DNA of 64,000 bases. It comes from Acidimicrobiia bacterium. GTDB taxonomy: Bacteria > Actinomycetota > Acidimicrobiia > Spongiisociales > Spongiisociaceae. The stretch spans positions 5,907 through 69,906 of the forward strand of contig VXMP01000075.1 of NCBI GenBank assembly GCA_009841075.1, written 5' to 3'. Below, in pieces: positions 2,566-54,080 of the stretch. The notes under the pieces were generated by a model that saw only the letters and a program-made list of their open reading frames with translations, ran no database searches and was not told the origin of the DNA. Both the position numbers and the translations under genes were made by a program. Position 1 is the stretch's first letter. Every line of letters begins with the position of its first letter.

Positions 2566-3795
2566 ATGGAAGGTTATGTCCCCCGCCTGGTAGACCGGCT
2601 TCTTGAGGAATACATCAAAGAAATCCCCGCCGTCATGGTGGTGGGTCCGCGCGCCTGTGGGAAAACCACCACCGCTCTCCGTCTTGTTCGTAGCGTGGTC
2701 CGGCTTGACTCGGATCAAGCCGCCTCGTTCCGGGCCGGGCCGGATGCGGCGCTACACGGGCGGGAAGAACCCGTACTGCTTGACGAGTGGCAGATGGTGC
2801 CGGAGGTGCTCGGTGCGGTCAAACGAGCCATAGACACCGACCGCCGACCCGGACGCTACCTTATCACCGGATCAGCCCGAACCGACCCGACCGACCGGCT
2901 CTGGCCACTAACCGGTCGGGCGGTAATGCTGCGTATGCACCCTCTGACGGTGGCCGAACAAGAGCATAGGCCCGTGCGCCCGCTGATCGACCGCATAGCG
3001 GAAGGCGAGGAGCCGGTAAAGGTCGAGGGGCCGCCAGTCGACCTGCGCGTCTATCTTCAGATCGCCTTAAAAGGTGGTTTCCCTGAGCCCGCCCTGAAGC
3101 TGAGCGAGTGGGCTGCCAGAGCTTGGCTCGAAAGCTACGCCGACCAGATCGCCCTAAGAGATTCCCGAACTCTCGGCAGCGAACCCGATGCCTACCGGCT
3201 GAAGCGCTACTTGGAGGCTTACGCCATCAACTCAGGACGGATAGTCCAACACAAGACGATCTACGACGCGGCCGGCATCAGCCGAAAGACCGCCTTGGCA
3301 TACGATGCCCTACTAAGCGACCTGATGGTCTTGAACGAGCTGCCGGCTTGGGCGACCAACCGACTCAAGCGGCTCAGCCGGGCTCCCAGGCGCTACCTGG
3401 TCGATTCTGGCCTGCTCGGGGGGATATTACGGGTCGGCATCGACGATGTAATGGCTAACGGCAACCTCCTCGGGACCATGATCGAGACGTTTGTGATAGC
3501 CCAGCTCCAGGCTCAAGCGGCTGTTTCGAGCACCCGCTATCGGCTTTCGCATCTACGGGAGCGCGACGGACGAAGGGAGGTGGACGTGATCGCAGAGTTG
3601 TCAGGAGGAAGGGTGATCGCCATAGAGATAAAGGCCGGGTCAAAGATCAGATCCTCCGATGCCCGACACCTATCGTGGTTGGGCGAGACCATGCAGGAAC
3701 GCTTCGTGGGCGGTGTAGTGCTGCATACCGGTCCCGACACCTACCGACTGGGTGATCGCATATTCGCCACTCCCATATCCACCCTGTGGGCTTAG
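2566..3795 (+). CDS. AAA+ ATPase, DUF4143 family (AAA_14 + DUF4143), paralog 1
   Basis: Walker A GPRACGKTT and Walker B LLDEWQ are present. The architecture is shared with the ORFs at 7238..8383 and 52788..54080. Confidence 0.85.
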   Translation: MEGYVPRLVDRLLEEYIKEIPAVMVVGPRACGKTTTALRLVRSVVRLDSDQAASFRAGPDAALHGREEPVLLDEWQMVPEVLGAVKRAIDTDRRPGRYLITGSARTDPTDRLWPLTGRAVMLRMHPLTVAEQEHRPVRPLIDRIAEGEEPVKVEGPPVDLRVYLQIALKGGFPEPALKLSEWAARAWLESYADQIALRDSRTLGSEPDAYRLKRYLEAYAINSGRIVQHKTIYDAAGISRKTALAYDALLSDLMVLNELPAWATNRLKRLSRAPRRYLVDSGLLGGILRVGIDDVMANGNLLGTMIETFVIAQLQAQAAVSSTRYRLSHLRERDGRREVDVIAELSGGRVIAIEIKAGSKIRSSDARHLSWLGETMQERFVGGVVLHTGPDTYRLGDRIFATPISTLWA

Positions 3796-3914
3796 CCTTC
3801 AAGCACTATTCTTAAGCGATGGATCCGCTGAAGTTTCCCCCGTTTTCAGGATATTCCAGCCGACGGCATGATTCAGTACCATGAGGATCCGGTGCGGACA
3901 CTGCAAGAAGCGGC

Positions 3915-4360
3915 ATGACTCAATCTAAGGCGTTCGGCTCTGTGCTCAAAAATCGTATGGGAAAGACACGAAATCACCAACACCAAAGCCCAAAGCTCAA
4001 CCATCAGTTCTGAAGAGAGATACCACACCTTCAATCCCGAAGAAGGCTCCCGAACCGCCGCAGAAAATAACCCCAACCCCGGTACCTAAGAAAGAAACGA
4101 AACCTCCAACACCGAAGAGTAAACCGAAAGCTCCAACACCGAAGAGAAAGCCGAAGTCTCAACCTCGCAAGGCCGCCAAAAGCCGCCCCCGGCCCGCTGC
4201 CAAAAAGAAGCGTGAATGGCGTCCCGATAGGCATCCAAGTGAATACGGGCGGTTGACAGTCCGGCAACCAGGTAAGCCGGAGAGATTTATTCCGGGTGGT
4301 GGTAAATGCCAATCCTGCGGAATGATATATCTTGCCGATGGTAGGTGCAGGTGTTCCTAA
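3915..4360 (+). pseudogene. Possible frameshifted gene: a short ATG-initiated frame followed out of frame by a Lys/Pro-rich (TPKxKP repeat) open frame ending in a Cys cluster (GGGKCQSCG...CRC)
   Basis: The ATG at 3915 opens a 32-codon frame. The long K/P-rich frame has no start codon and stops at TAA 4358-4360. The region is lower GC. Confidence 0.25.
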
Positions 4361-4443
4361 GCTAAAGCAGTTAGAGGAAGTGCTGTGCCGAAAACGAGGT
4401 TCATACACTTTAAAGTGCCCTCCGTCGGGGTGTTTGATGGACT

Positions 4444-5274
4444 TTACGGGCGAGGCCGCCCCGGGAGGAAGGGGTTGGTCCGCCGCATATAGTCGGCGTA
4501 GCCTGGTCTACGGTCGCCGATGGTTCTCTCCAGCATCGCCACACCGGATATCCGTACCAGCAGATAGTTCATGAGTAAAGGTCCGGCGAATGTCCAGACG
4601 GCACCGGCGGCCAAAGCCACCAGAAAGAAACCCCACCAGACCACGCAGTCGCCGAAGTAGTTGGGATGACGGCTATATCTCCACAGGCCGCTATCCAGAA
4701 CGGCGTGCCGGTTGGTCGGGTCGGAACGAAAGCGGCGAAGCTGAAGGTCGGCAACCGCCTCAAACCTCAAACCGATAGTCCAGACCGCCACCCCCAACCC
4801 GTCCAGCCAACCGAGCGGGCCAGCACCCTGGTCGACCAAAACGGCTTGGATCGGCAGCGACACAACCACTGCCACCGCGCCCTGCAGACCGAACACGATC
4901 AGGAGACTCCACCATTCGAAGGGTGGGTAGCGGCGGCGCATGGAGGCATACCGATAATCCTCCGGTTCTCCCCATTTTCGGACGGTGAGGTGGGCCGAAA
5001 GCCGAACTCCCCAAATCGTCACCATCACCAGCATCAGCACCGAGCGTCCCGACTCCGGTCTGCCGACCTCGGATATATAAAGCACCCAGGCCGATAGGAC
5101 AAACAACATCCCCCAGATGGGATCGACGATAGAAGCATCCCTTTTAGCCAGGCTCAGCAGCCAACCGGCCCCCATGACGATGGCCACGACCGAACCGGTA
5201 ATCAGCAGTCCGGTGGTTATCTGCTCCATAAATATGAGCCTATCGTCACCCGACCGGTTAACCCCGAAGCCCAT
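4444..5274 (-). CDS. DUF1295 / steroid 5-alpha-reductase-like integral membrane protein
   Basis: Multi-TM protein with the family-typical SRHPNYFGD motif, adjacent to the photolyase gene. Confidence 0.8.
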   Translation of the reverse strand: MGFGVNRSGDDRLIFMEQITTGLLITGSVVAIVMGAGWLLSLAKRDASIVDPIWGMLFVLSAWVLYISEVGRPESGRSVLMLVMVTIWGVRLSAHLTVRKWGEPEDYRYASMRRRYPPFEWWSLLIVFGLQGAVAVVVSLPIQAVLVDQGAGPLGWLDGLGVAVWTIGLRFEAVADLQLRRFRSDPTNRHAVLDSGLWRYSRHPNYFGDCVVWWGFFLVALAAGAVWTFAGPLLMNYLLVRISGVAMLERTIGDRRPGYADYMRRTNPFLPGRPRP

Positions 5275-5295
5275 ATCTACGACCGAGGGTATATC

Positions 5296-6693
5296 GTGGC
5301 TGCCATGTCGTCGCGAGCGCTGATCTGGTTCAGAAGGGACTTGCGCCTAGGCGACAATCCCGCCTGGACGTCAGCCTGCACCCGCGATAAAGTCTCCGCA
5401 CTGGTAGTTCTCGAACCAACCCTGCCGGCGGCGGCGGGTCCCTACCGGCGGCGGGCTTATCTATCCGCCGTAGCCGGACTGGAACAAACCCTTCTTTCAA
5501 GAGGAGGCGGACTTAGGGTGTTGAAAGGAAACCCGGCCCGAGAAGTGCCCAAAGTGGCCGCCGAAGTGGGGGCCGAGGTAGTGGTGGTGAACTCGGACGT
5601 CACCCGCTGGTCGAAGCAGCGAGACAACCTGGTGAAAAGTCGGCTGGACATCCCGATGGAAACCCATTGGGGGACTCTGGTCCACCCACCCCGGTCGGTC
5701 CTCACCGCCGCCGGACGACTGTCCAGGGTATTCACCGCCTTCTACCGCCGGTGGATGGCGAAACCCTTGGATATCGAGGCACCTCCGCAACAAACGGAAA
5801 TCCTGGCCCCACCACCGGGGACGGCCCTGGCCGATGCCTATGGCCCCGATCTTCCACCCGCCTGGACCGAACGGCACGCCTGGGATCGCCTGGAACGATG
5901 GCTACCAGAAGCTGATCAATATCCCGAAAATCGGGACTTTCCGGCCAGGGATGCCACCTCCAAGCTATCGGCCGAGCTGCGATTCGGACTGTTGTCTCCC
6001 CGGGCGGTGATGGAGTCGGTAGGTGACCATACGCCGGGACGGGCCGCATACGTCCGGCAGCTGGCCTGGCGGGATTGGTTCGCCCATCTAACCTTCGAGA
6101 ACCCTGACATCGACCAGAAGTCACTTCGTCCCGAGTTCGACCAAATCCGCTGGGCTTCGGGTCCTGATGCCGACTCCGATTTCGAAGCCTGGCGCACCGG
6201 ACGTACCGGATTTCCCATAGTGGACGCGCCGATGCGGGAGTTGGCCGCAACCGGCCGGATGCACAACCGGCTACGGATGATCACCGCTTCCTTTCTTATC
6301 AAGGATCTGCTCATCGACTGGAGACGCGGAGAGCGCTGGTTCCGCAAAATGCTCATAGACGGCGACCTCCCCCAGAACTGCGGTAACTGGCAGTGGGTAG
6401 CCGGCGTCGGCCCTGACGCCGCCCCCTACTTCCGGATTTTCAACCCAATCAAGCAAAGCCACCGCTTCGACCCGAACGGTCACTACCTACGTAAATGGCT
6501 ACCGGAGCTGGCACTGCTCGACAACCGGGCCATCCACGCCCCCTGGGAAGCCAATCCATCCACCCTGGCAGCCGCCGACATTGTCCTCGGAACCACCTAT
6601 CCCCGGCCCATAGTGGATCATGCCGAAGCCCGAAAAGCAACCCTGCACGCCTACCGAAACGCCCTCCCCCACCGACCTCCTCGACGAACCTAA
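5296..6693 (+). CDS. phrB: Deoxyribodipyrimidine (CPD) photolyase
   Basis: GTG start. The N-terminus is ALIWFRRDLRLGDNPAW and the FAD-binding C-terminal block is GNWQWVAGVG...FRIFNPIKQ. Confidence 0.92.
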   Translation: MAAMSSRALIWFRRDLRLGDNPAWTSACTRDKVSALVVLEPTLPAAAGPYRRRAYLSAVAGLEQTLLSRGGGLRVLKGNPAREVPKVAAEVGAEVVVVNSDVTRWSKQRDNLVKSRLDIPMETHWGTLVHPPRSVLTAAGRLSRVFTAFYRRWMAKPLDIEAPPQQTEILAPPPGTALADAYGPDLPPAWTERHAWDRLERWLPEADQYPENRDFPARDATSKLSAELRFGLLSPRAVMESVGDHTPGRAAYVRQLAWRDWFAHLTFENPDIDQKSLRPEFDQIRWASGPDADSDFEAWRTGRTGFPIVDAPMRELAATGRMHNRLRMITASFLIKDLLIDWRRGERWFRKMLIDGDLPQNCGNWQWVAGVGPDAAPYFRIFNPIKQSHRFDPNGHYLRKWLPELALLDNRAIHAPWEANPSTLAAADIVLGTTYPRPIVDHAEARKATLHAYRNALPHRPPRRT

Positions 6694-6773
6694 GGTTCTA
6701 AAAGTGTCACCAATAACGTCCTCAACCTAAGCCTCAAGAAGGCACTAAGGAGTTCCCCCGCCGGCTGGCTTCC

Positions 6774-7145: not shown

Positions 7146-7237
7146 TCAATAATGGCAATACCATAGCGACCGTACCCCACGCCAACCCTTCACCGGGAAG
7201 CAGCGAGGAATTACAACACCCCTCAACACGGAACCCT

Positions 7238-8383
7238 TCAAGGCCAGAGGCTGTCCTCCGCCAAAGCCTGATGGAAAGTTGCGAGCGGCCACACCTCAAT
7301 ACCCTCTCCCGTGCGAAAAGCGTGGGGGCCGGCGTAGACCAGGATTCGGCGGACCAACCCAGGCAGGTCGGCTATGGCCCGAAGCCCTTTGACCATCGAG
7401 GTGTGGTAACGGCGGGCGGATTTGACCTCGATGGCCAGGTGCTCACCGCCTCGGCTTAGAACGAAATCAACCTCGGTCTGAGACTGGGAGGGTGTCCAGT
7501 AGGCGATTTCCTCATACAAATTAAGATGATCGGAGTGGGCTCGAAGCGCGCCGAACACCCAACCCTCCAGGAGAGGCCCTCTTTCTTCGGCAACAACCGC
7601 TCCTGACCGCCGCTTGAGCGCCCGCACCAACCCCGGATCCACCCAATAAAGCTTCGGTCGGCGACGCTCTCGGATACGTAGTCTGGTGTCCAAGGCGGGT
7701 AGCCGGGTGGCGACCAGGGTGTCTTCCAGGATTTCCAGGTAACCGTTGACGGTGGACCGGGCTATACCGACGTCACGGGCTATACCGGCTGCGTTCAGGA
7801 CTTGAGTGTGCATCAAGGCGGCGATGGGCAGAAAACGGACGAATCCGGCCAGGTTACGAACTGCCGCCTCGGCCCTGATCTCTTCCCTTAGATAGAGCTG
7901 CGTGTAGCTCTCCAGCGTTTCGCGGCGGCTCTCAGAGTCCCAGATCAGAGCGATAGTTCCGTAACGGAGTACCTGATCAAGGTCGAAATCGTCGCCGAGT
8001 TCGTTGGCAGTCAGCGGATACATCAACCGGCGAACCGCTCGGCCGGCCAACAGGTTGGTTCCGGCCGTCTTCAGCCGGCGGGCACTTGATCCCAGCAGGG
8101 CAAATCTGGTACCCCGTTCCTCGATATGGCGATGTACCTCGTTGAGTAGTCCAGGGATCCGCTGTATCTCGTCCACAACTATCCAGCGGTCCGGCGGTTG
8201 CCCGGATACGATCCTCCCGAACAGGGCCGGATCGGCCAGTAAATCGGTATATAGGGTCTCGTCGAGAAGATCAAGACGAAGCGCACCAGGCAACGCGGTA
8301 CGCGCCCAGGTGCTCTTGCCCACCCCTCTTATGCCCAGCAAGAAAAAGCTTTTCTGTGGGATCTGCGCCAGCCTTGGGTACAT
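7238..8383 (-). CDS. AAA+ ATPase, DUF4143 family, paralog 2
   Basis: Walker A GIRGVGKST and Walker B VVDEIQ are present. It is divergent from the Fic gene. Confidence 0.85.
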   Translation of the reverse strand: MYPRLAQIPQKSFFLLGIRGVGKSTWARTALPGALRLDLLDETLYTDLLADPALFGRIVSGQPPDRWIVVDEIQRIPGLLNEVHRHIEERGTRFALLGSSARRLKTAGTNLLAGRAVRRLMYPLTANELGDDFDLDQVLRYGTIALIWDSESRRETLESYTQLYLREEIRAEAAVRNLAGFVRFLPIAALMHTQVLNAAGIARDVGIARSTVNGYLEILEDTLVATRLPALDTRLRIRERRRPKLYWVDPGLVRALKRRSGAVVAEERGPLLEGWVFGALRAHSDHLNLYEEIAYWTPSQSQTEVDFVLSRGGEHLAIEVKSARRYHTSMVKGLRAIADLPGLVRRILVYAGPHAFRTGEGIEVWPLATFHQALAEDSLWP

Positions 8384-8468: not shown

Positions 8469-9533
8469 TTGAAAGCCCAATTTTTCGGTATCCTATTGAA
8501 CGATTTGACGAACCTGACACCTGGCCCTCGAATCGGCCGGCCCAGCCACCTAGCGGTCTATCAACGACTGGATATCCAGATCCGGGAGTTCAACGTTTAT
8601 ATGAGAGGCCTACCCACCCCGATGGAAGCCCCGGATATCTGGGAGGAAATATTGCATTGGGAGACCCATCACTCCACCGCTATCGAGGGAAACCCGCTGA
8701 TTCTTTCCGAGGTGCAACAACTACTTGAAGAAGGTGGGGTGCCGGACAGCCAAAGCTCCAGGGACGACCTGGAAGTCTACGGATACGCAGAAGCCGCGGA
8801 ATGGGTATACGGGCATGCCGCACCTTCGTCGTCGTGGTCGGAGACCGAACCGCTCCTGACCCTGAACGATGTGCGAACGATCCATCACCTGGCTATGACG
8901 CCGATCAGGGAATTGAATCCCCAGCCGACCGCCGACGACCAGGAAACCCCCGGTTCCTATAGAAGGCACGATATCCGGTCCTTCCCCAACGGTATGACCC
9001 CCACCTCCTGGCAGGTCATCCCCGCAGAAATGGCCACCTGGATCGATCAGGCCAACTCCATCCGGCGCGACCACCCGAGGTTTCCGGCGCATCTGGCCGA
9101 CCTGCACTGCCGATTCGAACAAATCCACCCGTTCTTTGACGGTAACGGACGGACAGGTCGTTTGGCTCTCAACCTGATCCTGGTTCGGCTCGGCCTACCA
9201 CCGGCGATCATCCTGAAGCGGGACGGTGTTAAATATCTGCGTGCCCTGCAACGGGCCGACCGAGGCGAACCCGGCACCTTGGGCGGGATTGTGGCCCAGG
9301 CAATCATGGGCACCCTGCATCGACATTTGCTTCCCAAACTGGCCGCACCCGATCAGCTGGTCCCGCTCGAAGCCCTGGAAACCCCTGACATGAGCCTTAA
9401 TAATCTGAAGGTGGTGGCCACTCGGGGACGGATGCGAGCCCTTCGAGGCACCGATAACCAGTGGAGAGGCACCCGCAGCTGGGTGGACGAATATAAGGCC
9501 AGCCGCAAATACCGCGCCGGCCGCAAAAAATAA
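8469..9533 (+). CDS. Fic/Doc (Fido) family protein with an N-terminal inhibitory helix
   Basis: Canonical Fic motif HPFFDGNGRTGR. An upstream STAIEGN sequence matches the (S/T)xxxE(G/N) inhibitory motif. Confidence 0.9.
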   Translation: MKAQFFGILLNDLTNLTPGPRIGRPSHLAVYQRLDIQIREFNVYMRGLPTPMEAPDIWEEILHWETHHSTAIEGNPLILSEVQQLLEEGGVPDSQSSRDDLEVYGYAEAAEWVYGHAAPSSSWSETEPLLTLNDVRTIHHLAMTPIRELNPQPTADDQETPGSYRRHDIRSFPNGMTPTSWQVIPAEMATWIDQANSIRRDHPRFPAHLADLHCRFEQIHPFFDGNGRTGRLALNLILVRLGLPPAIILKRDGVKYLRALQRADRGEPGTLGGIVAQAIMGTLHRHLLPKLAAPDQLVPLEALETPDMSLNNLKVVATRGRMRALRGTDNQWRGTRSWVDEYKASRKYRAGRKK

Positions 9534-9594
9534 ATTTGTTTTGTTCTGATTATTTTCGGTCAAGGTGAACAAATTCGGCGGGTCGGGTGCCTGA

Positions 9595-10155
9595 TTGTTC
9601 GGTATCCTGTTAAACGTCTTGAGCAAACCATCCCCCTCACCAAGGCGCGGCCGTCCCACAAATCTTCAGATCTACGAGCGGCTGGCCACCCAGATACAGG
9701 AGCTCAACGAGCATTTGGGAGGTCTCCCTACTCCGATGGAAGCAGCAGATACCTGGAAAACCATATGGCATGGGGAGGTGCATCACTCGACTGCCATCGA
9801 AGGGAATACGCTGATCCAGAGTGAGGTGGAGGATCTGCTGGAACGTGGCATTGCGCGTGGCAATCGAGCACTGGTTGAGTATATGGAGGTCAAGGGATAC
9901 GCCGACGCTGCGGACTGGGTATATCAGCAGGCCTCGTCTTCTCCGCAAAGATCGGAAGCCGAACCGCTCTTGACCCTCGCCGATGTGCGGATGATCCATA
10001 AAACTAAGTCCCAACTTGCCTGTTCAACCGGGTTCATCCCAAAATCTCCAATTTCTTTTTCAGGCAACCCATACCGCGATTACCCTTCACACGATTGCAA
10101 TGGCCACAAAGCAGTTGCAGATTCTCAATATGATCCGTCCCGCCCTTCGCCTTAG
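9595..10155 (+). pseudogene. Truncated Fic paralog (N-terminal region only, including the inhibitory helix; no Fic catalytic motif)
   Basis: About 60% identity with the N-terminal 140 aa of the upstream Fic, including conserved 5' leader nucleotides. Similarity ends at ...LTLADVRMIH (about position 9995), after which the frame runs into unrelated sequence. Confidence 0.6.
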
Positions 10156-10274
10156 TTGGCGGGTTACCAAATCCAGCAGATCCGTGCGGGCCGTCTGTAG
10201 GGCTACCTCATGGCTAGGTGAGCTAGGCGTGGCTCTTATAGGTGTAGCGATGCCCGGGGTGCCGTATCGCGTGG

Positions 10275-16370: not shown

Positions 16371-16372
16371 GT

Positions 16373-22771: not shown

Positions 22772-25266
22772 TTACCTACCTGAGGCCCGATAGAGAGCGA
22801 TCAGGCCTTCATTGTTGGCGAGGGTATTGATCTGGTCTCGGATGTTGTGGTCTTTCAGGTCTAGACGAAGCAGTCGTCCATCTATCCGGTCCAGAATCTC
22901 GATTCTCCCGAAGCGGTGTCCGTGTTCTTGGGCGTATAGGGCGAGCCCTTTGGCCTTTGCTACCGAGTCGGCTAGATGGGTTCCGTGGGGATCCAGGATG
23001 TCGACAACTATGCGGTCATCGTCTTGTCGGAAGAAAAGGAAATCGGGATAGACCGGCTGGTGTTCCCCATTTCTTCGTTGGTAGGGGAGGGTGAACGACC
23101 AGCTCTTGCGGGCGGGGTTGCGGAGCCAACCAAGACAGCCGGGGATTTCTGCTTTTAGTACAGCCTCTTCCAGGTTATTGAAGTGGTCGGAGAAGGTCCA
23201 GCCCTCGTCAACGTAAACGTGTCTTCCCCAGCCTGAGGCTTCGGCGGAACATTTCCACACCACCCGCTCCGGGTACCTGATTGTTATCAGAGCCGGCTGA
23301 TCGGACGAGCCGGTTATTTCGTGGTATACGGAGCGGCGACTCTCCGGCAGGCCGTCGATTTGTTCCCAATACTCGCTTAGCCATTGCCCAACCCGATCCC
23401 GAGCCAGGTTCTCTACTCCTTCTATGACCTCTGGGGCAAAGAGCAGCACGGCCACTTCAATCTTGGCGTGAGCGATCTGCTCCACATCGTCAATGCCCTC
23501 CACCGCACGTTGCCAGAATTCGTGATGGAGACCTTCTGCGATCTTGCGGCCCGCCTCGACGAATAGGTCGTTGATATTTTCGGACGAGGCCTCCACCTCC
23601 TGCACGGTGGTGTTGACAAACCTCTGTTCTATCAGGTCAAAGACAAGGGTGCCGAAGGTGACCAGTGACTTTTCGCGTACCTTATCCTGGAAGGTCTGAT
23701 CTTGGCGCTTTTCTTCCAGCTTCGACTGAAGGAATGCGCAGATCTCAGATTTGGCAGATGAGACGGCGTACTGATCAATACCGTCGACGCCCAGCGCTCG
23801 GGCCAGGCTCATCAGGCGGCGAACCTGTTTAGCCTTTCTGTGGGTAGGAACCGTGTAGGAGGGTAACTTGGAGAGCGCCTCGAAGATAGCCGCCTTATCG
23901 TCTGCACGATGTAACGTCACCGCCTCGCCGGATTGTTCGACCTCGACCGGAGGTACGTACTCGTGGTCGGAGTCGGTTAGGCGCTCAACCACCGATTGCA
24001 CACCTTGGGCGTCGTAATGGGGAAGGAACAGCGACACCCCGTTGAGGCTTTCGTCCTGGTTGATCCGCCTGGCGAGCGGGGTTCGAACCATCCTGCCGAT
24101 CAGCTGGGCTATGTAGGTGGCGTCCTTGGCCCGGCGGTAGGACATCATCGTCTCGGCCCGGGGGCAGTCCCAGCCGGTGGATAGGGCCGTCTTGAAGAAC
24201 ACCACCCTGACCTCGCGGTCGGCGGCGATCCGGGAGGGGGCGAGGTATTGGATCACGCGGCCATCCAAATCAAGGTGGCTGGCCTCGTCGAAGGAATGGC
24301 GGAACGCCTGGTTCGGCAAGGCGGCGGAAAGTTCCTCGTTGATCGCCTGGATCGCCTGGTTCAGGTCGGTGCGCGTTCCAGGCTTACCCTTCGGCGCGTT
24401 TTCCACTTGGACAATGAAGAGAGGCACCACCGGTCGCTCGCCCTGCTCGGCGCAGTATGTCGCCCAGCGCTCGGTGTAGTCCTTCCAGTGGCGGGTCGCC
24501 GCCCGCAACAGCGTGATGTCGATCTGCTGGTCGTCGGCGCTGTGGTGGAGCACGATCCGCTCCTTCAGCAGGCCGGACTCACGAACCTCGGCCGGCTCGA
24601 CGTGTACCGGATGAACGGTGCGGGATCCGGCTACCAGATCGTTGAACCGTTTAGGGGTGGCCGAAATGCCCAGCACCAGCGGCGAGGCTCGCATCTCGTC
24701 GGTGCCCTTAAGGAACCTTTGGATAATCGTTTCCGCGTTTTTCTCGTCACCTTTGGTTCGCATACCGCGATGGGCCTCGTCGATGATCACCACAAAGCGA
24801 GCACCCATCCGTTCGATGGTGTTGTCTAACGTCTGCCAGATCGTCCACCATTTTTTGTCCCCCAATGTGGTGAGCAGCTTGTCCCGGCCCAGCTTCTGCG
24901 TGTTCAGAAAGTAGAGTCGGCCCGGGCTCAGCACCTCTTGATTGAAGGACGACTCTATGACCTCCATATCCATCGGGGTCAGAACATCGGAGGTGTTGAG
25001 CATCTTGTTGTAGGTCTGGAGGTTCAGTTCGGGCAGGTCGGTGATCCAAAGAAATATGGCTTGGTCATCCGGGCCTTGCTGATGGTCGCCCTGGAGAATC
25101 CGCTCTAGGAGACGGGTGGCGATGACCGTCTTGCCTGCGCCGGTCGGTGCCGAAAGAACCACCGCCTGGGGAGAGTTTGGGCCTGCGATCGAGGCGGCTT
25201 GACGGACCCTGGTGGTCAGGTCTTCCACCGCCGCCTGCTGGAAATCCTTGAGGACCAGCCGCATCA
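22772..25266 (-). CDS. res: Type III restriction enzyme Res subunit (SF2 helicase + C-terminal nuclease-like region)
   Basis: The start is taken at MRLVLKDFQQ (about 25266), not at the far-upstream ATG of the ORF. Motif I is APTGAGKT and motif II (DEAH) is VVIIDEAHRG. Confidence 0.8.
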
Positions 25267-27425
25267 GCCCAGCACCCCCGACCGTTGACGGTGAAGTTGC
25301 GCGAGTAATCCCAGTAGAGCCTCCGGACCTGCAAGTGCTCGGGTAGGGCCTGGCACATCTCAATGAAACCGGCCTCCGAGTTGGTGACCAGCCACACATG
25401 GGTAACAGACGGGCGTGACTCAAGTTCCTTGGTGAACTGGGCCAGATGCTGCTCGTCAAACAGAACTCCGTAGGTGGAGCCATCCGGCAGGGACCAGGGT
25501 GCGTCACCGTCCCACTCCTCGAACTCTCCAACCGATCCGGACGCCATCCACAGAATCGGGACCACCGCGTTGAAATGTCGGCCCAGCTCCACCAGGTCAG
25601 GATCCAGATAGTCGAGACGGAGGAACTCGACATTCTCTTCGAATCCGTCTTCGTAGTTGTGGTCGGAGAGGTATCGGTCGGGGTACTTACCGGAGGGACT
25701 TGTGCCATCCGACCGAATTCCCTTTATCGCGGTCTCGCACCTCGGCTTGGTAACGGCCTCAAAGATGCCCTTCGCCTCGAACTCGGCATCTCCCTTGAAC
25801 ACCCCCCTTTGAGTCCCGGCCAGCGATTTAGCATCCCTGTCGTTTACCTCGTTGTTAGTGACCAAAACACATTGACGCCGACCGCCGTCCTGGGCGTTCA
25901 GTAGTGCGGTAGCGTGGAGGGTGGTGCCGGAACCCGCGAAGAAGTCAAGAATTACCGCGTCGGGTTTGGAGACCACCAGTGCATCCAGCGTATCGCGTAC
26001 CGCGTAAAGGGATTTCGGAAAATCGAATTGACGTCCCCCCAAAAGTTCTCCTAAGAGTTTGGTACCGCCTGTACCGGCGTCATGGCGGGATCGATGCCAC
26101 ATGGTCTTTATACGACGGTCCCGAGCACCCACATATCTAACAGAGAGCACACCCGTGTCTTCATTTCGACTCACCACTTCCAGCAAACCGGCTTCGAGCT
26201 GGTCCTGTAATTTGGCAGAGAGATAAGAAATCGCCCAGGTGCGCCGTTCGGGGTCGAACTTCCCTAACCGGGCCAGGCCACGGTGGGCAAGATCAAGTAA
26301 CTTCTCGCGCCCTAGGCCCCAATTACCCAAGGATTTATCCTTACGGATAGGCCAAGCCACCGGAAATCCTCCAATGGTTAGGTCAACCTCTGGAGTGAGG
26401 AAGTTGTACTCCGAAGGGTCAAGTAGTCCTTGTTCACCCCTTTCCTTGAGGCTCTCCCCCACATCTACGATTCGGCCCTTCTTCGGGTCGATGGCAATCG
26501 GATACACCATATTCGGACGGTCGGAAGGAAGAGCATTAGTTCCACCTCGAAGTAAGGACTTCCATCCAGGTGCTTGCTTTTCGCCTGCAGTATCACCGCC
26601 GAACGTAAACAAATCATCTGGCCTTGACTCAACCCCTGCCTCGCCGAAAAAGACAAAGTGGGCATATTCCTCAACACGCGAAAAGCGCGGCTGGGTCACG
26701 CCTTTCGGGTTGTTCATAATCGTCACCATCTGGTGGTAGGCATCCGGGAACATCTCATCAAGCAGAACGCCCAAATGGTGCACTTCATGCTCGTCGATCG
26801 TTACCACCAGCACCCCGTCCGGCTTCAATAGGTGCCTGGCTAAGCGGAGGCGTTTTTCCATAAACGACAGCCACTTGGAATGGCGGTAGCGATCATTTTC
26901 GTCTACGAAGCGGTTGTTGTACTTCCACGACTTGTCGCCGGTGTTGTACGGAGGGTCGATATAGATGCAATCCACCTTCCCGGCATAGGCGTATGTCAGC
27001 ACCTGCAGGGCATGAAAGTTCTCGCCGTTGATGACCACATGGGCGGGCTTTTCCGGACCTCCCCTCCTCACGTTCCCCACCGGGGTCAGGCCGCAGAAGA
27101 CCTGTTCGTGGAACTGCTTCACCACCAAAAGGTCCTTGACGGGAATCTTGGCTTCCGGCCCGTCGGTTCCCCTCGGGATGACCGTGGCCACACCGTCCTC
27201 GACCTTCAAGACCCGAAATTGGGACAGGTCATCGGGAGTAGTGCGGTTCTGGACGATTTGCCCCGACCGAACCGGATAACCGAACACCGAAACCGTCTCC
27301 GGAATGTGCTCCTCGAAGACCAACCCGAACTGCTTGGTCTTCTTCAGTTCCTTAACCTCTGAGGCGACCTGCTCCCGTAGCGACGGGTCTTCAATCTGGT
27401 CAATCAGGTCTTCTATCTTCGCCAT
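25065..27425 (-). CDS. mod: Type III R-M Mod subunit, N6-adenine DNA methyltransferase
   Basis: DPPY motif IYIDPPYNTG, SAM-binding motif FFAGSGTTLHA, and an NPPY-class layout. The C-terminal ~66 codons look like GC-rich read-through overlapping the res start. Confidence 0.85.
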   Translation of the reverse strand: MAKIEDLIDQIEDPSLREQVASEVKELKKTKQFGLVFEEHIPETVSVFGYPVRSGQIVQNRTTPDDLSQFRVLKVEDGVATVIPRGTDGPEAKIPVKDLLVVKQFHEQVFCGLTPVGNVRRGGPEKPAHVVINGENFHALQVLTYAYAGKVDCIYIDPPYNTGDKSWKYNNRFVDENDRYRHSKWLSFMEKRLRLARHLLKPDGVLVVTIDEHEVHHLGVLLDEMFPDAYHQMVTIMNNPKGVTQPRFSRVEEYAHFVFFGEAGVESRPDDLFTFGGDTAGEKQAPGWKSLLRGGTNALPSDRPNMVYPIAIDPKKGRIVDVGESLKERGEQGLLDPSEYNFLTPEVDLTIGGFPVAWPIRKDKSLGNWGLGREKLLDLAHRGLARLGKFDPERRTWAISYLSAKLQDQLEAGLLEVVSRNEDTGVLSVRYVGARDRRIKTMWHRSRHDAGTGGTKLLGELLGGRQFDFPKSLYAVRDTLDALVVSKPDAVILDFFAGSGTTLHATALLNAQDGGRRQCVLVTNNEVNDRDAKSLAGTQRGVFKGDAEFEAKGIFEAVTKPRCETAIKGIRSDGTSPSGKYPDRYLSDHNYEDGFEENVEFLRLDYLDPDLVELGRHFNAVVPILWMASGSVGEFEEWDGDAPWSLPDGSTYGVLFDEQHLAQFTKELESRPSVTHVWLVTNSEAGFIEMCQALPEHLQVRRLYWDYSRNFTVNGRGCWADAAGPQGFPAGGGGRPDHQGPSSRLDRRPKLSPGGGSFGTDRRRQDGHRHPSPRADSPGRPSARPG

Positions 27426-44312: not shown

Positions 44313-44553
44313 TGAGCATGATCTCTTTGCGCTCGGCCTCGGTAAACCCGCCCCAGATCCCGAATGGTTCTCGGATTTCCAGGGCATATTCCAGGCATTC
44401 CTGCTTGACCGAACAGGCGTTACATACCGCCCGGGCCTTGATCTCCCGGCGCTCGCGCTCGTCCTTCCGCTCGAACTTGCTCGGTGGAAAGAAGAGATGC
44501 GAATAGTTATTCCGACATCGGGCGTGGAGATGCCATGAATCGTCGTAGTCCAT
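44305..44553 (-). CDS. WhiB-family (Wbl) Fe-S transcription factor
   Basis: Four Cys residues (C-x30-C-x2-C-x5-C) and the GIWGG turn motif. The gene is AT-richer than the flanks. Confidence 0.85.
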   Translation of the reverse strand: MDYDDSWHLHARCRNNYSHLFFPPSKFERKDERERREIKARAVCNACSVKQECLEYALEIREPFGIWGGFTEAERKEIMLIN

Positions 44554-44771: not shown

Positions 44772-45218
44772 ATGAAACTGAACACCGACTATCTCACGCG
44801 TTCCATCAATGCCTTGGAGTCCGCCTACAACCATCTGAGCAGGCAAACTCCGGACGAGGAAGTGGCCGATTTGTCGGGCATAGTCCTGTATGACATATTC
44901 CGAGCAGCCTGCGTGAAGGAATTTGAGATCATCCTTGAACAGTGCGGGAGCATTTTGAGAAAGCGGCTGCGGCCTTATATGGCCTCCAACCGCCAGGCAG
45001 ATCGGCTGACCTTTAATAACACTTTCAGGCGATCCGCCAAGCACGGGCTTATCACGGTGGAGGCCTGTGAACGATGGCTCGGATATCGAGAAATCCGCAA
45101 CGATACGGCCCATCACTATGGTGCCAATTATGCGGAAGCCGCCCTGGGGGTTCTGTCCGGGTTTATAGAAGACGCCAAACACATTGTGGAAGTCCTGGCG
45201 ACGCCCTTCGATGAGTGA
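44772..45218 (+). CDS. HEPN-domain protein (HepT-like toxin of a HEPN/MNT pair; NTase substrate-binding family)
   Basis: The start is chosen at MKLNTDYL. The RNDTAHHY R-x4-HxY HEPN motif is present. The track ORF begins at an upstream TTG (44592). Confidence 0.75.
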   Translation: MKLNTDYLTRSINALESAYNHLSRQTPDEEVADLSGIVLYDIFRAACVKEFEIILEQCGSILRKRLRPYMASNRQADRLTFNNTFRRSAKHGLITVEACERWLGYREIRNDTAHHYGANYAEAALGVLSGFIEDAKHIVEVLATPFDE

Positions 45219-45537
45219 AGCATTGGACCTTCCCACCCGCTACCGGGAGCAGATAGAAGCCCTTTTACGCAGGCACGTCCCGGAAGTGGAAGTCTGGGCC
45301 TATGGAAGTCGGGTCAATGGACTTGGCCACGACGCCAGCGACTTGGACCTGGTTTTGAGGGGCCCTGGCCTAAAACCTATTGCTTTAGGCGAAATAGCCG
45401 ATCTGGCCAAAGGTTTTGAACAATCCACTATCCCGATCCTGATTGAAGCCCGAGACTGGGCCAGACTCCCCAAAAGTTTTCAGCAAGAAATCGAACAGAA
45501 CTATGTGGTGCTTCGAAAGGCCGGAGCGATTGGATAA
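45211..45537 (+). CDS. Minimal nucleotidyltransferase (MntA-like antitoxin)
   Basis: GSRVNGLGHDASDLDL matches the GS-x9-DxD NTase motif. The start overlaps the HEPN stop (ATGA-type coupling). Confidence 0.8.
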   Translation: MSEALDLPTRYREQIEALLRRHVPEVEVWAYGSRVNGLGHDASDLDLVLRGPGLKPIALGEIADLAKGFEQSTIPILIEARDWARLPKSFQQEIEQNYVVLRKAGAIG

Positions 45538-48613: not shown

Positions 48614-48691
48614 CCCATCTCACCAGGGCTGCCTCAAATCCAAGGTTTGGTGTCACACCTCGTCTGATTCCTAAACCCTATCCTCTCCGGT

Positions 48692-50182: not shown

Positions 50183-50751
50183 GGGAGGCAGGTCGGCCTT
50201 CGGAGCTGATCCTCATACTGGGTGGGGCTCGTTCCGGCAAGAGCGCCGCCGCCGAGCAGTTAGCCCCATCCGGTAGTCGGGTGTTGTTTGTAGCTACCGC
50301 CGAACCGCTGGATGAGGCGATGCGGCAGCGCATTCAGGCCCACCGCAGGCACCGACCGGATCATTGGGACACGGCGGAGATCCCCATGCTGCATCAAGGT
50401 GACGAACTCCGCTCTTCGGCCGCCCGATACGACACCTTCATAGTGGACTGTCTGACCCTTTGGATCAGCAACCTGATGCTCTCCCTCGGCCCGGGTTCTG
50501 ACGCAGATGTGGAGGCCGAAACCGCCACCTCCCGCCTTCTCGACCTGATGGCTGAGGAGGGTGGTAGATGGATCCTGGTCAGCAACGAGGTGGGGCAAGG
50601 CATCGTGCCGAACAACCCGCTGGGAAGGGAATACCGGGATGTTCTCGGACGGGTCAACCAGCAGGTGGCGTCACGAGCCGACCAGGTGCTGCTGATGGTG
50701 GCCGGTTTGCCGATCGACCTGAAGTCCGTCACCACACCGTTAAACCGGTGA
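50179..50751 (+). CDS. cobU: Bifunctional adenosylcobinamide kinase / adenosylcobinamide-phosphate guanylyltransferase
   Basis: ILGGARSGKS P-loop. The start overlaps the cobQ stop (ATGA). Confidence 0.88.
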   Translation: MREAGRPSELILILGGARSGKSAAAEQLAPSGSRVLFVATAEPLDEAMRQRIQAHRRHRPDHWDTAEIPMLHQGDELRSSAARYDTFIVDCLTLWISNLMLSLGPGSDADVEAETATSRLLDLMAEEGGRWILVSNEVGQGIVPNNPLGREYRDVLGRVNQQVASRADQVLLMVAGLPIDLKSVTTPLNR

Positions 50752-50825
50752 TATCCCAACAGGAATCCCACATAGTCAATAGGGCGGAAAGGTCATATAA
50801 CGCCTGGACAGAACAGGCAAAATCC

Positions 50826-52562
50826 CTAAGCCACCTGGTATTCGAGCAGGGACGACTTACCTAGCATTTCGATAAAACGTACCCTCAGGCTGACGCCGTT
50901 TACATCGGTCAGCATCAGGACTTGGCCCAGCTTGAAATTAACCGGCTGAGACTTGCCTTCGTCAACGGCAACGTTGGCTGTGTATAGGTAGGTTCTTTCC
51001 AGGGTGTCGAGAATCGGGTTTAGCCTCCCGGCCAGGCCGGGAAGGTGGCCAGTTCCTTCCGTGAATATCGCAGACCCGCCGCCCGGCAGCTCGGTTAGCT
51101 CTATAGCCAGTTCCTGGGGTGGCTGCCAAGCCTTCTCTACATACCCGACCAAACCAGGGGCACCGCATAACACTGTTATGGGAAGTTCGGAGTGAAAACG
51201 AAAGTGGGCACGTCCGAAAGTGTCGGTTTCTTCTGCCATCCAGGTTCCGTTCGGATAATGAGCCACCACCTTTACGCCGCTTTTTGGCCGGCCCTGGACG
51301 CTTACTGTTACAACCCCCTTCAAGTCTTCGGTCGGTGGAGGAGCAGAGGGGATGGTCAGGCGGAGCTCAACACCATCTAATAGCTCGTAACGTGGTTCTT
51401 GTCCGGTGAGGGAAAGCGTGTCGCGGTAGATAATCCTGACCCCTTCGCCACGCTCCTGCAGGAAATAGCGGCGATTGCCCGAACCAGGAACCTCCCCGAT
51501 TTCCAGTAGGCGGAGTATGGAGGCCAGGGTTTCGTTACGAGTGGCCTGACGGTCGCGCATCGCGTCAATAGATAGCGTGTTGGGGAGGGTGCCGGGAGAA
51601 TATAACTCCAGCCGATCATCGAATATAAACATCCTCGTCTTGGCGTTCTCTATGGAATAGTCCCGATGCACCACCGCATTTACCACCGCCTCGAACAACG
51701 ACCGTTCACTGAACTGTGGTACCTCGACAAATCCCGGCGTTCTCCGCGCCGACACCCGTGTATTGAAACGGGCGAACTTCACAGCTTGCCGAATCTGTCG
51801 ATCCAGAGGCCCGGTGATGGTGGAGGCGTCGTGTTGTTCCGCGCTGTCGAGAGCCGTTCCCCTATAGCGAACCGCTTCGATTAATGCACCTCTCAGGTAA
51901 AGGTGCGGCTTTTCGGTGCAAAGCAGTACACCTGCCACCGTGGCCCGCGACACACCCTCGTCATCGATATCCAACAGACCTAGCTTCAAGAGTTGGTTCT
52001 GCACCGACTCCTCGGAACGGGAGCTAAGGAAACGGTCGATTAGTTCTGTATCCAAGGTGCGAAAGCCAGTCCGGTCTACCATTGTTTCATCAGGGCCTTT
52101 AAGTCCGGCTCGACCGCGGTGCTGGAACAGCCGGTACAGAGCGGAGGGCGATAGCTGCCTCTTGGAACTGCCTTGTCTTTGAAGGTATCCGCCCGGACTG
52201 CGGTGAACCAAATCGCTTCTAGGGATATCCACTACCAGCACCATTCCCTGCTCCAGGGCGAACTTATGGGTAAAAAAGTGAAGGGGTGGATCTATGCTAT
52301 CGGCGCAAACCTCACTTATGAAGGCCTCTGCCTTCCCTAGACCTTCCCGATCCAGTGAACCAACCTCCCCCTGGTCTGTCACACCGAGAAACAGAGTGCC
52401 TCCCATAGTGTTGCCTAAAGCGGCCAACTCGTCGGCCATAGTCTCTCTTCTGGGTGACACCAAGCGCCCGTCTTGAATCTTGACGTCCTTGAACTCGATC
52501 CGAGTGTCCTCGCCGAGCAACAAACGCTCTCGCACCAACTCCTTGGTCCAAATTACGGCCAT
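50826..52562 (-). CDS. AlbA_2 (Schlafen-like DNA-binding) + HATPase_c_4 (RecG-C-terminal-like) protein with an extra ~170-aa C-terminal domain of unknown function
   Basis: The N-terminus has EDTRIEFK. The mid region has AVVNAVVHRDYS. The C-terminal region has no recognisable motifs. Confidence 0.7.
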   Translation of the reverse strand: MAVIWTKELVRERLLLGEDTRIEFKDVKIQDGRLVSPRRETMADELAALGNTMGGTLFLGVTDQGEVGSLDREGLGKAEAFISEVCADSIDPPLHFFTHKFALEQGMVLVVDIPRSDLVHRSPGGYLQRQGSSKRQLSPSALYRLFQHRGRAGLKGPDETMVDRTGFRTLDTELIDRFLSSRSEESVQNQLLKLGLLDIDDEGVSRATVAGVLLCTEKPHLYLRGALIEAVRYRGTALDSAEQHDASTITGPLDRQIRQAVKFARFNTRVSARRTPGFVEVPQFSERSLFEAVVNAVVHRDYSIENAKTRMFIFDDRLELYSPGTLPNTLSIDAMRDRQATRNETLASILRLLEIGEVPGSGNRRYFLQERGEGVRIIYRDTLSLTGQEPRYELLDGVELRLTIPSAPPPTEDLKGVVTVSVQGRPKSGVKVVAHYPNGTWMAEETDTFGRAHFRFHSELPITVLCGAPGLVGYVEKAWQPPQELAIELTELPGGGSAIFTEGTGHLPGLAGRLNPILDTLERTYLYTANVAVDEGKSQPVNFKLGQVLMLTDVNGVSLRVRFIEMLGKSSLLEYQVA

Positions 52563-52787
52563 GACTTCAGCTTATACCTCGTTGAGTATTCGGTGTCTAA
52601 ATAGCCAAGAAAGACAATAATTGGGGCGTCCAATATGGCTACGCCCCCGGCACCTTCCGGCTGGTACGACCATGGCCTGTACTGGAGTACGGCGAGGTCT
52701 GCGCTTTAGAAACCGGCAAGACGACCGTGCCGAGATGAGAACGGCTTACATCATGGCAAGCCTACGTTCGGGTATATGTCCTCGTGT

Positions 52788-54080
52788 TCAGGGGCCTAAT
52801 AAGGCGGCGGGGACTACCGCAATGCCATCTTGGTTTCGGTAGGCGTGGTGGCCGGTGGTAATGATCATGGTGTCCACCAGCCCGGGGCCGAGTTGTCGGG
52901 CGAGCCAGCGCAGGTGGGCGGTATCCTGGCGGGTGGGCACGGCTGTCAGTTTCACTTCGATCCCCAGTACTTTCCCTTCATGCTCCACGATCAGATCAAC
53001 CTCTCGTAGGTCATTCCAGGTTCTTAGGTGGCCCACTCGGGCCTGATGAGCCTGGGCGTAGACCCGCACGCTCTGGGTCACCAACGACTCGAACATAGCG
53101 CCAAGCAGCGGGCCGATGTGGAAGGACGGGACGGGTCGCTCGGATGGGTTTGGTGACAACAATCCTTCAGCGGAAACGTTCAGTAAACGGGCGGCCAGCG
53201 CAGGATCAGCAAGGTGATGTTTGGGTCCACGCTTCAACCTTCTCAACGAGGTACCCCACGGCTGCCAGGCCGGAACCGGCTCGACCAGCCACATCGCCTC
53301 CAGTAGGTCGCGATAGACCGCGGTAGTGGTCTTGGCCGGTTTGCCGCCCTCCGCCGGAGTCGAGGCATCCAAAATTGCCTCATACGAAGCAGTTGTGGCG
53401 GTGGCGGCGGCGTATGCGGTCATCCAGCGTCGCATGGTGGAGGGGCGTCGCAACCTACGGCCCATCAAGCCCACTTCGTGATCAACTACCCGATCCAAAT
53501 AACCATCAAATCGGACCGACCGAAGTTTGCTATCCGTCGTTTTCATACCCGGGAAACCCCCTTCCAGGATCTCCTTGACGTAGTCGGACAACCCCACCTC
53601 CGTTTGCCCACTAATCCTGGAACGGCCCCCGGCCAGCAAACGTCCCAGGCTCACGGTCGGCGTTTCCAAGCCTCTTTCCGATAGAGATATGGGCCGCATC
53701 CTCAACGTCACAATTCGTCCGGCACCCGAGTGGGTTGGCAGAGTGGCCGGACCGGTTGATCCGGTGAGCAGAAACCGTCCCGGTGCCGGGTTCTCGTCCA
53801 CAGCGCGACGCACCAGGTCCCACGAGTAGGGATAACGCTGCCATTCGTCGATCAGAACCGGCGGCTCTCCGACCGTCAACCGGCCCGGATCGGCTTGAGT
53901 AAGTGCCATAGTCTGGGGATCGTCCAGGTTGTGGACGGTTCGTGCCCGCCGAAGGGCAGTGCGCGTCTTGCCCACCGCCCGGGGACCGTTGATGCAGATG
54001 GCCGGCAAACCACCCAACATCCAGTCCAACTCCTGGTCAACTACCCGAGATAGGTAGGCACCGCTTTCCGAAACAGGCAT
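52788..54080 (-). CDS. AAA+ ATPase, DUF4143 family, paralog 3
   Basis: Walker A GPRAVGKTR and Walker B LIDEWQ. Co-oriented with the 86-aa ORF upstream and the AlbA_2 gene downstream. Confidence 0.85.
   Translation of the reverse strand: MPVSESGAYLSRVVDQELDWMLGGLPAICINGPRAVGKTRTALRRARTVHNLDDPQTMALTQADPGRLTVGEPPVLIDEWQRYPYSWDLVRRAVDENPAPGRFLLTGSTGPATLPTHSGAGRIVTLRMRPISLSERGLETPTVSLGRLLAGGRSRISGQTEVGLSDYVKEILEGGFPGMKTTDSKLRSVRFDGYLDRVVDHEVGLMGRRLRRPSTMRRWMTAYAAATATTASYEAILDASTPAEGGKPAKTTTAVYRDLLEAMWLVEPVPAWQPWGTSLRRLKRGPKHHLADPALAARLLNVSAEGLLSPNPSERPVPSFHIGPLLGAMFESLVTQSVRVYAQAHQARVGHLRTWNDLREVDLIVEHEGKVLGIEVKLTAVPTRQDTAHLRWLARQLGPGLVDTMIITTGHHAYRNQDGIAVVPAALLGP

Follow-up and report, generated by a model that had tools for sequence, protein, structure and literature searches.

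Four divergent PDC-S01-type ATPase-nuclease genes on one Acidimicrobiia scaffold: probable stand-alone defence genes acquired separately in variable chromosomal spots

Background

Why do several distantly related genes for one kind of ATPase lie close together in a bacterial genome, each beside poorly characterized accessory genes? The question is raised by a 64,000-nt stretch (hereafter the window) of a 66,024-bp metagenome scaffold (ENGE20-1_SAMN12347671 scaffold_404) from an uncultured member of the Acidimicrobiia, in which genes with the Pfam domains AAA_14 and DUF4143 recur. A preliminary description of the window had proposed that these genes mark mobile or defence-type insertion hotspots, or else that they act as a common partner of different effector genes.

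We find that the copies are unexceptional representatives of PDC-S01, a known, very common and uncharacterized family of candidate defence genes, and that each of them arrived separately, as a one-gene cassette, at a variable chromosomal spot. Overall, the locus is probably best explained by stand-alone ATPase-nuclease genes, acquired independently and serving in defence against incoming DNA.

The best relatives of the source organism are metagenome-assembled genomes (MAGs) of Ca. Spongiisociaceae, Ca. Spongiisocius and Ca. Poriferisodalis, and the host species is a sponge-associated member of the Acidimicrobiia related to Ca. Spongiisocius. Our literature search found no mention of Ca. Poriferisodalis or Ca. 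Spongiisocius. Loci fetched for comparison with the window are labelled with L-numbers (L005, L010 and so on), the scaffold itself being L001.

Results and discussion

Four members of one candidate defence family

The scaffold holds four copies of the gene, three in the window and one just outside it:
Window 2566..3795, plus strand: copy 1, AAA_14 + DUF4143, PDC-S01-type, 409 aa (Pfam; PADLOC PDLC04790, E 1.5e-106)
Window 7238..8383, minus strand: copy 2, AAA_14 + DUF4143, PDC-S01-type, 381 aa (Pfam; PADLOC, E 2e-54)
Window 52788..54080, minus strand: copy 3, AAA_14 + DUF4143, PDC-S01-type, 430 aa (Pfam; PADLOC, E 7.5e-76)
L001 3867-5054, minus strand, about 850 bp upstream of window position 1: copy 0, the fourth copy, 395 aa (precomputed Pfam; PDC-S01, E 2.5e-88)

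In copies 1 to 3 an AAA_14 domain (E 1e-12 to 1e-17) is followed by DUF4143 (E 7e-23 to 7e-33), both above the Pfam gathering scores, and copy 0 is placed between the glucosamine isomerase and hydantoinase B genes on L001. Pfam thus confirms the three paralogs first described, a number that proves slightly understated given the fourth copy on the scaffold. There are four copies per ~56 kb of scaffold, and three of them lie inside 10.4 kb.

All four copies match the PADLOC PDC-S01 hidden Markov models across their full length (E 2e-54 to 1e-106), as a single-gene system. The family corresponds to COG1373, with Pfam AAA_14 + DUF4143, and its profile is matched by 28,960 clusters at 50 % identity. 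PDC-S01 is one of PADLOC's 145 phage defence candidates, which were nominated because their members are embedded inside BREX, DISARM or type I restriction-modification (R-M) systems (PMC12988326). In a 2026 survey it is the fourth commonest 'defence' in prokaryotes, with 29,494 occurrences in 40,000 bacterial genomes (an average of 0.74 per genome) and 9,986 in 7,747 archaeal genomes, and it is described there as an ATPase fused to a PD-(D/E)xK domain (PMC12988326). It is also the most frequent single locus in rumen MAGs. DUF4143 itself was put into the PD-(D/E)xK superfamily by Steczkiewicz et al. 2012 (PMC3424549). Nothing sets the window copies apart from this family; they have the same single-gene architecture of ATPase and PD-(D/E)xK domain.

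Literature searches, which for COG1373 covered titles and abstracts, found no functional study of DUF4143 or COG1373 proteins. A Thermus gene of the AAA_14 + DUF4143 type is listed among those that respond in expression to the presence of a plasmid (value 6.6), an entry that gives weak support to the role proposed below.

Conserved sites and predicted structure

The Walker A residues G27, G32 and K33 and the Walker B residues D73 and E74 are invariant both among the four paralogues and across 50 homologues, and so is R118. The nuclease residues E307, D340, E354 and K356 are invariant across the four paralogues; in the 50-sequence alignment D340 and E354 are invariant and K356 is nearly so. Conservation among the four copies is highest in the ATPase core (36 % mean identity) and lowest in the lid (22 %), which also contains a 25-residue indel.

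The AlphaFold model of copy 1 (predicted local distance difference test, pLDDT, 92.3; predicted template modelling score, pTM, 0.92) can be divided, from its secondary structure, into a P-loop core (residues 1-135), a helical lid (~140-203) and a winged helix (~209-280). Residues 290-409 form, in this model, an alpha-beta-beta-beta-alpha-beta nuclease fold with conserved acidic and lysine residues, the nuclease residues being located on helix 299-318 and on strands 338-344 and 350-355. The best overall matches of the model in a Foldseek search of the PDB are two archaeal AAA+ ATPases, PABY2304 (2qen, template modelling (TM) score 0.45) and SSO1545 (2fna, TM 0.40). Further matches include clamp loaders (RFC), RuvB, plant NLRs and SAMD9, those to RFC, RuvB and the NLRs falling on the N-terminal part. 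Can2 chains are among the top matches, which we would attribute to the predicted C-terminal nuclease domain, and copy 2 has a weak match to the PADLOC CARF_PDDEXK model. A sequence search of the PDB returned no related solved structure.

Each copy has a separate origin

Copy 1 is 84 % identical to a protein of a Ca. Spongiisociaceae MAG (locus L005) and ~50 % identical to proteins of Solirubrobacterales. The best relatives of copy 2, on Joint Genome Institute (JGI) metagenome contigs, are 55 % identical, copy 3 is 56-58 % identical to proteins of Solirubrobacterales, Gemmatimonadales and Rhodothermales MAGs, and copy 0 is 42 % identical to a Coxiellaceae MAG protein. Within the window, nearly full-length BLASTP alignments give 27 % identity for copies 1 and 2, 32 % for copies 1 and 3 and 27 % for copies 2 and 3; copy 0 is 26-28 % identical to the other three. 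These values agree with an earlier estimate by eye of 25-35 % and with the view that the copies are no recent duplicates. Because the copies are 42-84 % identical to proteins of other lineages, yet only 27-32 % identical to their neighbours, we regard them as members of separate, anciently diverged subfamilies and not as duplicates.

In the comparison with its nearest relatives copy 1 is 84 % identical, versus 73 % for photolyase and 74 % for cobyric acid synthase, and this excess conservation fits a later exchange of the gene between lineages. Relatives of PDC-S01 are carried on 334 of 72,556 plasmids, 187 of which are conjugative or mobilizable. They are rare in viruses (6 of 50,697 phage records and 5 IMG/VR contigs).

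The copies occupy variable, defence-enriched spots

The genes that accompany copies 1 to 3 in the window are:
1060..2355, minus strand: orphan gene, 431 aa, guanine-cytosine (GC) content 0.448, divergent from copy 1 and absent beside its L005 orthologue
8469..9533, plus strand: Fic/DOC protein, 354 aa, divergent from copy 2 (Pfam Fic, E 7e-18; PADLOC PDC-S04, E 1.5e-23, and SoFic, E 4e-22)
9589..10155, plus strand: partial tandem duplicate of the 5' part of the Fic gene, 186 aa (weak SoFic N-terminal similarity, no Pfam Fic match)
50826..52562, minus strand: AlbA_2 (Schlafen-like) + HATPase_c_4 protein, 578 aa, GC 0.559, 225 bp downstream of copy 3 (Pfam)
54141..54401, minus strand: 86-aa open reading frame (ORF), orf86, with a faint DUF1828-like start (E 0.18) and no other family match

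Within the species the arrangement is constant. The order CobU, AlbA_2, copy 3, PNPOx is found on all 10 contigs of the species that we read, taken from a variety of samples and MAGs. Four contigs extend far enough beyond RpiB; all of these carry Fic beside copy 2, and three run on via photolyase and DUF1295 to copy 1. The copies are fixed within the species.

Related genera, whose photolyase is 67-72 % identical, have the backbone BPD_transp_2 - YhfX - ABC - glucosamine isomerase - PyrG - photolyase - DUF1295 - [variable] - XerD, and no DUF4143 gene was found in this same backbone there (glucosamine isomerase to photolyase-DUF1295). Their variable slot next to DUF1295 holds, depending on the genome, a ScoMcrA-like HNH gene, another HNH gene or a HigB/helix-turn-helix (HTH) pair. 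In the lineage of the window, copy 0, hydantoinase B, the orphan gene and copy 1 fill the interval from glucosamine isomerase to DUF1295. Here the DUF1295-photolyase pair (window 4444-6693) is inverted with respect to the related genera (L148-L150), and PyrG is gone from its ancestral place. The inverted segment is bounded by copy 1 (plus strand) and copy 2 (minus strand), with copy 2 and Fic on its other side. Past CobU, at the end of the cobalamin operon, the gene set differs in each of three related genera, none of which has an AlbA_2 or DUF4143 gene there. The copies are found where synteny breaks, and at one of these breakpoints relatives have a variable defence islet.

The GC content of the ATPase genes is native (0.60-0.615; window 0.60). 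Low-GC DNA flanks them: the orphan gene (0.448), the spacer 3796-4443 (0.519), the interval 9534-10274 (0.541), the AlbA_2 gene (0.559) and orf86 (0.529). By its composition, this DNA beside each copy is foreign. Other cargo accompanies the copy 1 orthologue of L005 (84 % identical), namely a PsyrA/ShosA-like gene, a low-GC gene of 723 aa without a match, and SoFic. In a longer stretch of the same locus (L005 11402-19212) three fragments of hydantoinase B are interleaved with the PsyrA/ShosA-like, 723-aa, PhyH and SoFic genes; this region looks like a gene broken by successive insertions.

Because of the variable slots of the relatives, the cargo of L005, and the type III R-M system, Fic and AlbA_2 genes and nucleotidyltransferase pair in the window, we conclude that the genes sit in variable, defence-enriched spots. 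As would be expected of hotspot cargo, the site varies among relatives, and other defence genes are present both there and in the window. The proposal that the ATPases mark insertion hotspots therefore stands in part. The sites are variable and of a defence type, and relatives lack these genes, but the ATPases seem to be carried by the hotspots as cargo and not to mark or make them. Even so, DNA does seem to have been inserted directly at the borders of the ATPase genes.

About 1 kb from the copy 3 islet, window 55019-56092 carries tRNA-Ser(CGA), signal recognition particle (SRP) RNA and tRNA-Ser(GGA) genes together with a TadA-like deaminase gene. RNA gene clusters are classic integration neighbourhoods. 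An Rfam scan of the window detected SRP RNA and the two tRNA-Ser only, and none near the copies.

Chance and the clustering of copies

The alternative that survives best is chance, that is, a lineage rich in DUF4143 genes of which several happen to fall in one 64-kb window. We simulated random copies in a 4.5-Mb genome, a calculation whose result depends on the genome-wide copy number. Four copies within 56 kb arise with P = 0.001 at 10 copies, 0.03 at 20, 0.34 at 40 and 0.84 at 60, and three copies within 10.5 kb with P = 0.002 at 10 copies, 0.02 at 20 and 0.13 at 40. A lineage with 40-60 copies would therefore often hold four within 56 kb by accident, and the huge size of the family and the rank of PDC-S01 as the most frequent single locus in some surveys speak in the same direction. 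The bacterial average of less than one copy per genome speaks against it, as does the group of three in 10.4 kb, which is unlikely even at 40 copies.

A further argument comes from 80 related loci in species-representative genomes. At 11 of them a second family member lies within 10 kb, with two further matches at three of these, and the co-located pairs are 25-33 % identical at all loci but one (L052, 57 %). From these 11 unrelated loci it follows that stacks of divergent copies are recurrent and no peculiarity of the window. Clustering is a family trait. Given this, and the position of all copies at synteny breakpoints beside foreign DNA, we consider accidental co-location unlikely.

Cassette-like borders and upstream repeats

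Across the 80 loci, orthologues with 84-96 % protein identity have hardly any flanking genes in common. Their DNA homology (84-92 %) starts 20-75 bp upstream of the ORF and stops between -4 and +10 bp from the stop codon. Such sharp borders are seen in Solirubrobacterales (L008-L011, L018; L035, L049, L055, L068), in Campylobacter concisus (L054, L057, L076) and in others. For copy 1 and L005 the homology is confined to window 2494-3797 (L005 9928-11232). In C. concisus one genome has its upstream flank in common with a second genome and its downstream flank in common with a third, so the DNA that adjoins the borders varies. Between L009 and L010 the ATPase gene has 89 % DNA identity and the shared flanking genes 73-77 %. 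L010 also differs from L009 by ~3.4 kb of DNA that separate its cassette from the upstream genes common to both, and this DNA contains a second paralogue with 33 % identity. In these alignments, close orthologues behave as promoter-plus-ORF cassettes, with homology running from a pair of 22-23 bp tandem repeats to the stop codon.

Tandem repeats lie in the upstream part of two of the cassettes:
2494..2539, plus strand: two tandem 23-bp direct repeats before copy 1 (GATTATGTGCAAAAACGGGAACA / GATTACGTGCAAAACCAGGAATG), 15/18 matches at period 23, conserved in L005
54120..54165, minus strand: two tandem 23-bp direct repeats upstream of copy 3 (GAGAATTTGTAGCGCAGA / GAGAATTAGTAGCATAGA), 15/18 matches at period 23

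The repeats of copy 3 overlap the 3' end of the 86-aa ORF, and their core GTAGC(G/A)TAGA is common to copy-3-like loci of other phyla. We scanned genome loci of the copy-1 and copy-3 types for tandem pairs with at least 14/18 matches, allowing periods of 12-40. Such pairs occur upstream, in several phyla, at 43 of 73 loci, compared with 6 of 68 in the downstream control and 3 of 73 inside the gene, and the period is 22 or 23 bp in 39 of the 48 upstream hits. The repeat sequence is specific to the subfamily, for example GTAGCGTAGA in relatives of copy 3 and TGCGTGA...GCTAT in the Solirubrobacterales relatives of copy 1. There are no tandem repeats upstream of copy 2 and copy 0, and a promoter and terminator scan around copy 3 gave nothing above shuffles. 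Where present, the repeats are probably an operator or promoter, putatively bound by the winged helix of the gene's own protein.

What is new here is a modest addition to the anatomy of the family, consisting of stacks of divergent copies, cassette-sharp borders and upstream repeats of 22-23 bp. The borders also bring up a different explanation, in which the gene is a selfish, self-mobilizing one-gene element whose protein binds the repeats at the 5' border, cuts and inserts or homes, defence not being primary. This would account for near-identical orthologues in unrelated flanks, with the same borders in at least six independent contexts, for a gene that in L009 and L010 is more similar than its flanks, for new DNA (including a second paralogue) inserted exactly at gene borders, and for the spread of the PDC-S01 family across phyla.

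Several observations speak against such an element. The repeats are at one end only, and we found no copy of the upstream repeat, no inverted repeat and no conserved target at the 3' border. Searches for terminal inverted or direct repeats around the copies gave chance-level short matches only, the Fic duplication excepted, and at the loci compared there is neither a target duplication nor a conserved sequence outside the borders. No transposase or integrase lies beside the copies, which do not correspond to a transposon, an insertion sequence (IS) or an integron cassette. The copies occupy the same sites in all strains read, have native GC and are rare in phage and viral contigs, and we know of no transposition chemistry that uses the AAA+/winged-helix/nuclease domain set alone. 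We think it improbable that the genes are selfish elements of this kind, and it seems to us slightly more doubtful still that PDC-S01 genes are autonomous mobile cassettes that promote their own insertion or the insertion of DNA at their own borders. If true, such mobility would build the stacks of paralogues and seed defence islets, it would represent a new mobile element without a recombinase, and one of the most abundant 'defence' calls would be partly a selfish element.

Neighbouring genes and the partner question

To tabulate neighbours we took the nearest ORF on each side of the 80 related loci, which gave 145 proteins, and added 37 further loci related to copy 2 (117 related loci in total). 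The 145 immediate neighbours fall into 92 Pfam families, none of which is present in more than two proteins, and most are housekeeping proteins (phosphoenolpyruvate carboxylase, AcrB, glutamate synthase, CorA, BipA and others). A defence-like minority comprises AbiEi (twice), type III restriction endonuclease (twice), SoFic/PDC-S04, PDC-S27, Csm5, Dsr1, PsyrA/ShosA and HEC-09. Fic occurs within 10 kb at 5 of the 80 loci and AlbA_2 at 3, and there is no Fic gene at the 37 loci related to copy 2. The orphan 431-aa protein, orf123 and the 86-aa ORF have no homologue beside the 80 related loci, and for the orphan protein and the 86-aa ORF this extends to all 117. A conserved small upstream ORF was not found either, the 203 upstream ORFs of related loci forming no family.

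These numbers bear on the suggestion that the ATPases are a common partner of different effectors, each of them a sensor, regulator or activator of the adjoining Fic, AlbA_2 or orphan protein. In its favour, copy 3, and no other copy, shares its strand with AlbA_2, from which it lies 225 bp away in an arrangement conserved in the species. An AlbA_2 homologue directly abuts a family member in L084 only (within 10 kb in L019 and L038), and a trio of AlbA_2, Fic and PDC-S01 recurs in a Rhodothermales MAG (L038 9995-15240, with an AbiEi-like gene in addition) and in an IMG/VR contig (L088 2435-11167). We interpret the trio as common island genes residing together. Transcription of copies 1 and 2 diverges from that of their neighbours, and in L005 the orthologue of copy 1 stands beside PsyrA-like and SoFic genes instead. 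The same neighbour family does not recur beside homologues, as it would in a conserved two-gene partnership. From the lack of a recurrent neighbour family, the rarity of Fic and AlbA_2 and the divergent transcription we therefore reject the partner model, which we rate as very unlikely. The ATPase genes would, from these arrangements, act without a partner gene.

A local tandem duplication with prolonged later divergence at the site, to which the three copies in 10.4 kb and the 57 % identical pair of L052 might point, is the least credible explanation of all, because the closest relatives of the copies belong to other orders and phyla rather than to the same scaffold, related genera with the same backbone have no copy, and the orientations are mixed.

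A proposed role and its weak points

The explanation that we favour is the stand-alone one. Each protein alone might be an ATP-controlled, oligomerizing, DNA-binding nuclease directed against incoming DNA from phages or plasmids, whose action would resemble that of a single-chain, type IV-like restriction enzyme. Binding of the winged helix to the tandem repeats before its own gene could provide self-regulation. Several divergent copies may be kept for a wider range of targets, and the genes may accumulate at the same spots because insertions are tolerated or attracted there.

Several observations weigh against this explanation. The defence role of the PDC-S01 family is founded on genomic association only, and at the 80 related loci the majority of immediate neighbours are housekeeping genes, only about one tenth being defence-like. 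No recombinase, terminal inverted repeat or target duplication was found that would account for the movement of cassettes. Copies 2 and 0 lack the upstream repeats, so the idea of self-regulation misses some subfamilies. Finally, the co-location would be unremarkable if the genome held at least 40 copies.

Other genes and features of the window

The orphan 431-aa protein has no match in Pfam, NCBIfam, PADLOC or the PDB, and the label 'Ntn-like' once given to it could not be verified; a single-sequence AlphaFold 2 model (pLDDT 38) was unusable. Full-length homologues with 26-28 % identity are carried on plasmids of Enterococcus faecium, Rhizobium, Mesorhizobium and Pantoea. The Mesorhizobium homologue lies within ~4 kb of ThiF and multiubiquitin genes and a RES/Xre pair. 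The orphan gene is recently acquired cargo.

The 'Fic pair' of the preliminary description reduces to one intact Fic gene, the second ORF being a partial 5' duplicate without a Fic-domain match. The duplication relates 8475-8885 to 9589-9999 at an offset of 1114 bp, with 75-79 % DNA identity. Strains differ by a 1-bp indel in the 86-aa ORF, whose called length is 82, 86 or 90 aa where it is called at all. It probably represents what is left of a gene that was truncated on arrival of the copy 3 cassette.

The spacer 3796-4443 downstream of copy 1 (648 bp) shows, by eye, a long proline/lysine-rich frame without a start codon. It contains no plus-strand ORF of at least 40 aa, and one 80-aa ORF starts in its last ~110 bp. 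The spacer is probably a decayed gene, and the homology with L005 stops just short of it.

Further genes of note in the window are:
22772..25264, minus strand: type III restriction subunit, Res helicase (Pfam ResIII, DEAD; PADLOC REase_III)
25065..27425, minus strand: type III R-M methyltransferase Mod (PADLOC MTase_III, E 5e-146; Pfam N6_N4_Mtase)
44305-44553, minus strand: WhiB, adjoining the NTase_sub_bind/NTP_transf_2 pair
44772..45537, plus strand: NTase_sub_bind + NTP_transf_2 pair, of a toxin-antitoxin-like MNT/HEPN type (precomputed Pfam), conserved in all strains read

The type III R-M system (22772-27425, minus strand) looks complete and lies in a stretch of lower GC (0.56-0.57). The start codon of Res is uncertain (a 978-aa ORF, against 830 aa as called in L138). 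At 63478-63933 (minus strand) there is a ParB-type ORF, with matches to HTH and C-terminal dimerization domains, which suggests a region near the chromosomal origin.

Significance and comparison with known systems

For the window itself the outcome is mostly a clarification, in that the cluster turns out to be unexceptional cargo, carried in variable spots of a sponge symbiont rich in defence genes. For the PDC-S01 family it gives handles for further work, namely intact predicted ATPase and nuclease sites, a candidate binding site in the 22-23 bp repeats, and evidence of acting alone. The stacked divergent copies with their sharp borders also bear on how small defence islets are assembled.

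The closest overall folds, those of the archaeal proteins PABY2304 (2qen) and SSO1545 (2fna), of the Arch_ATPase type, are likewise uncharacterized, and no sequence similarity to them was detected. On our interpretation of the model, the part shared with 2qen and 2fna would comprise the AAA+ core plus the helical and winged-helix module that comes after it. The superposed part does not include the C-terminal PD-(D/E)xK domain, which the window proteins have in addition. Compared with the Can2/Card1 CARF nucleases, the window proteins lack the CARF sensor and have an AAA+ ATPase and winged helix instead.

By analogy only, an AAA+/winged-helix gene directly preceded by tandem repeats of ~22-23 bp resembles the iteron-binding initiators and Orc1/Cdc6. 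Unlike these, PDC-S01 genes have only two repeats and a nuclease domain.

In type IV restriction of the McrBC type, a nucleotide-driven oligomeric motor controls a PD-(D/E)xK nuclease, and the system tends to sit in variable defence islets. The logic that we propose for the window proteins is similar, but would be carried out by one polypeptide instead of two; the likeness is one of analogy. At the chromosomal site of the copies, a ScoMcrA-like HNH enzyme is present in relatives.

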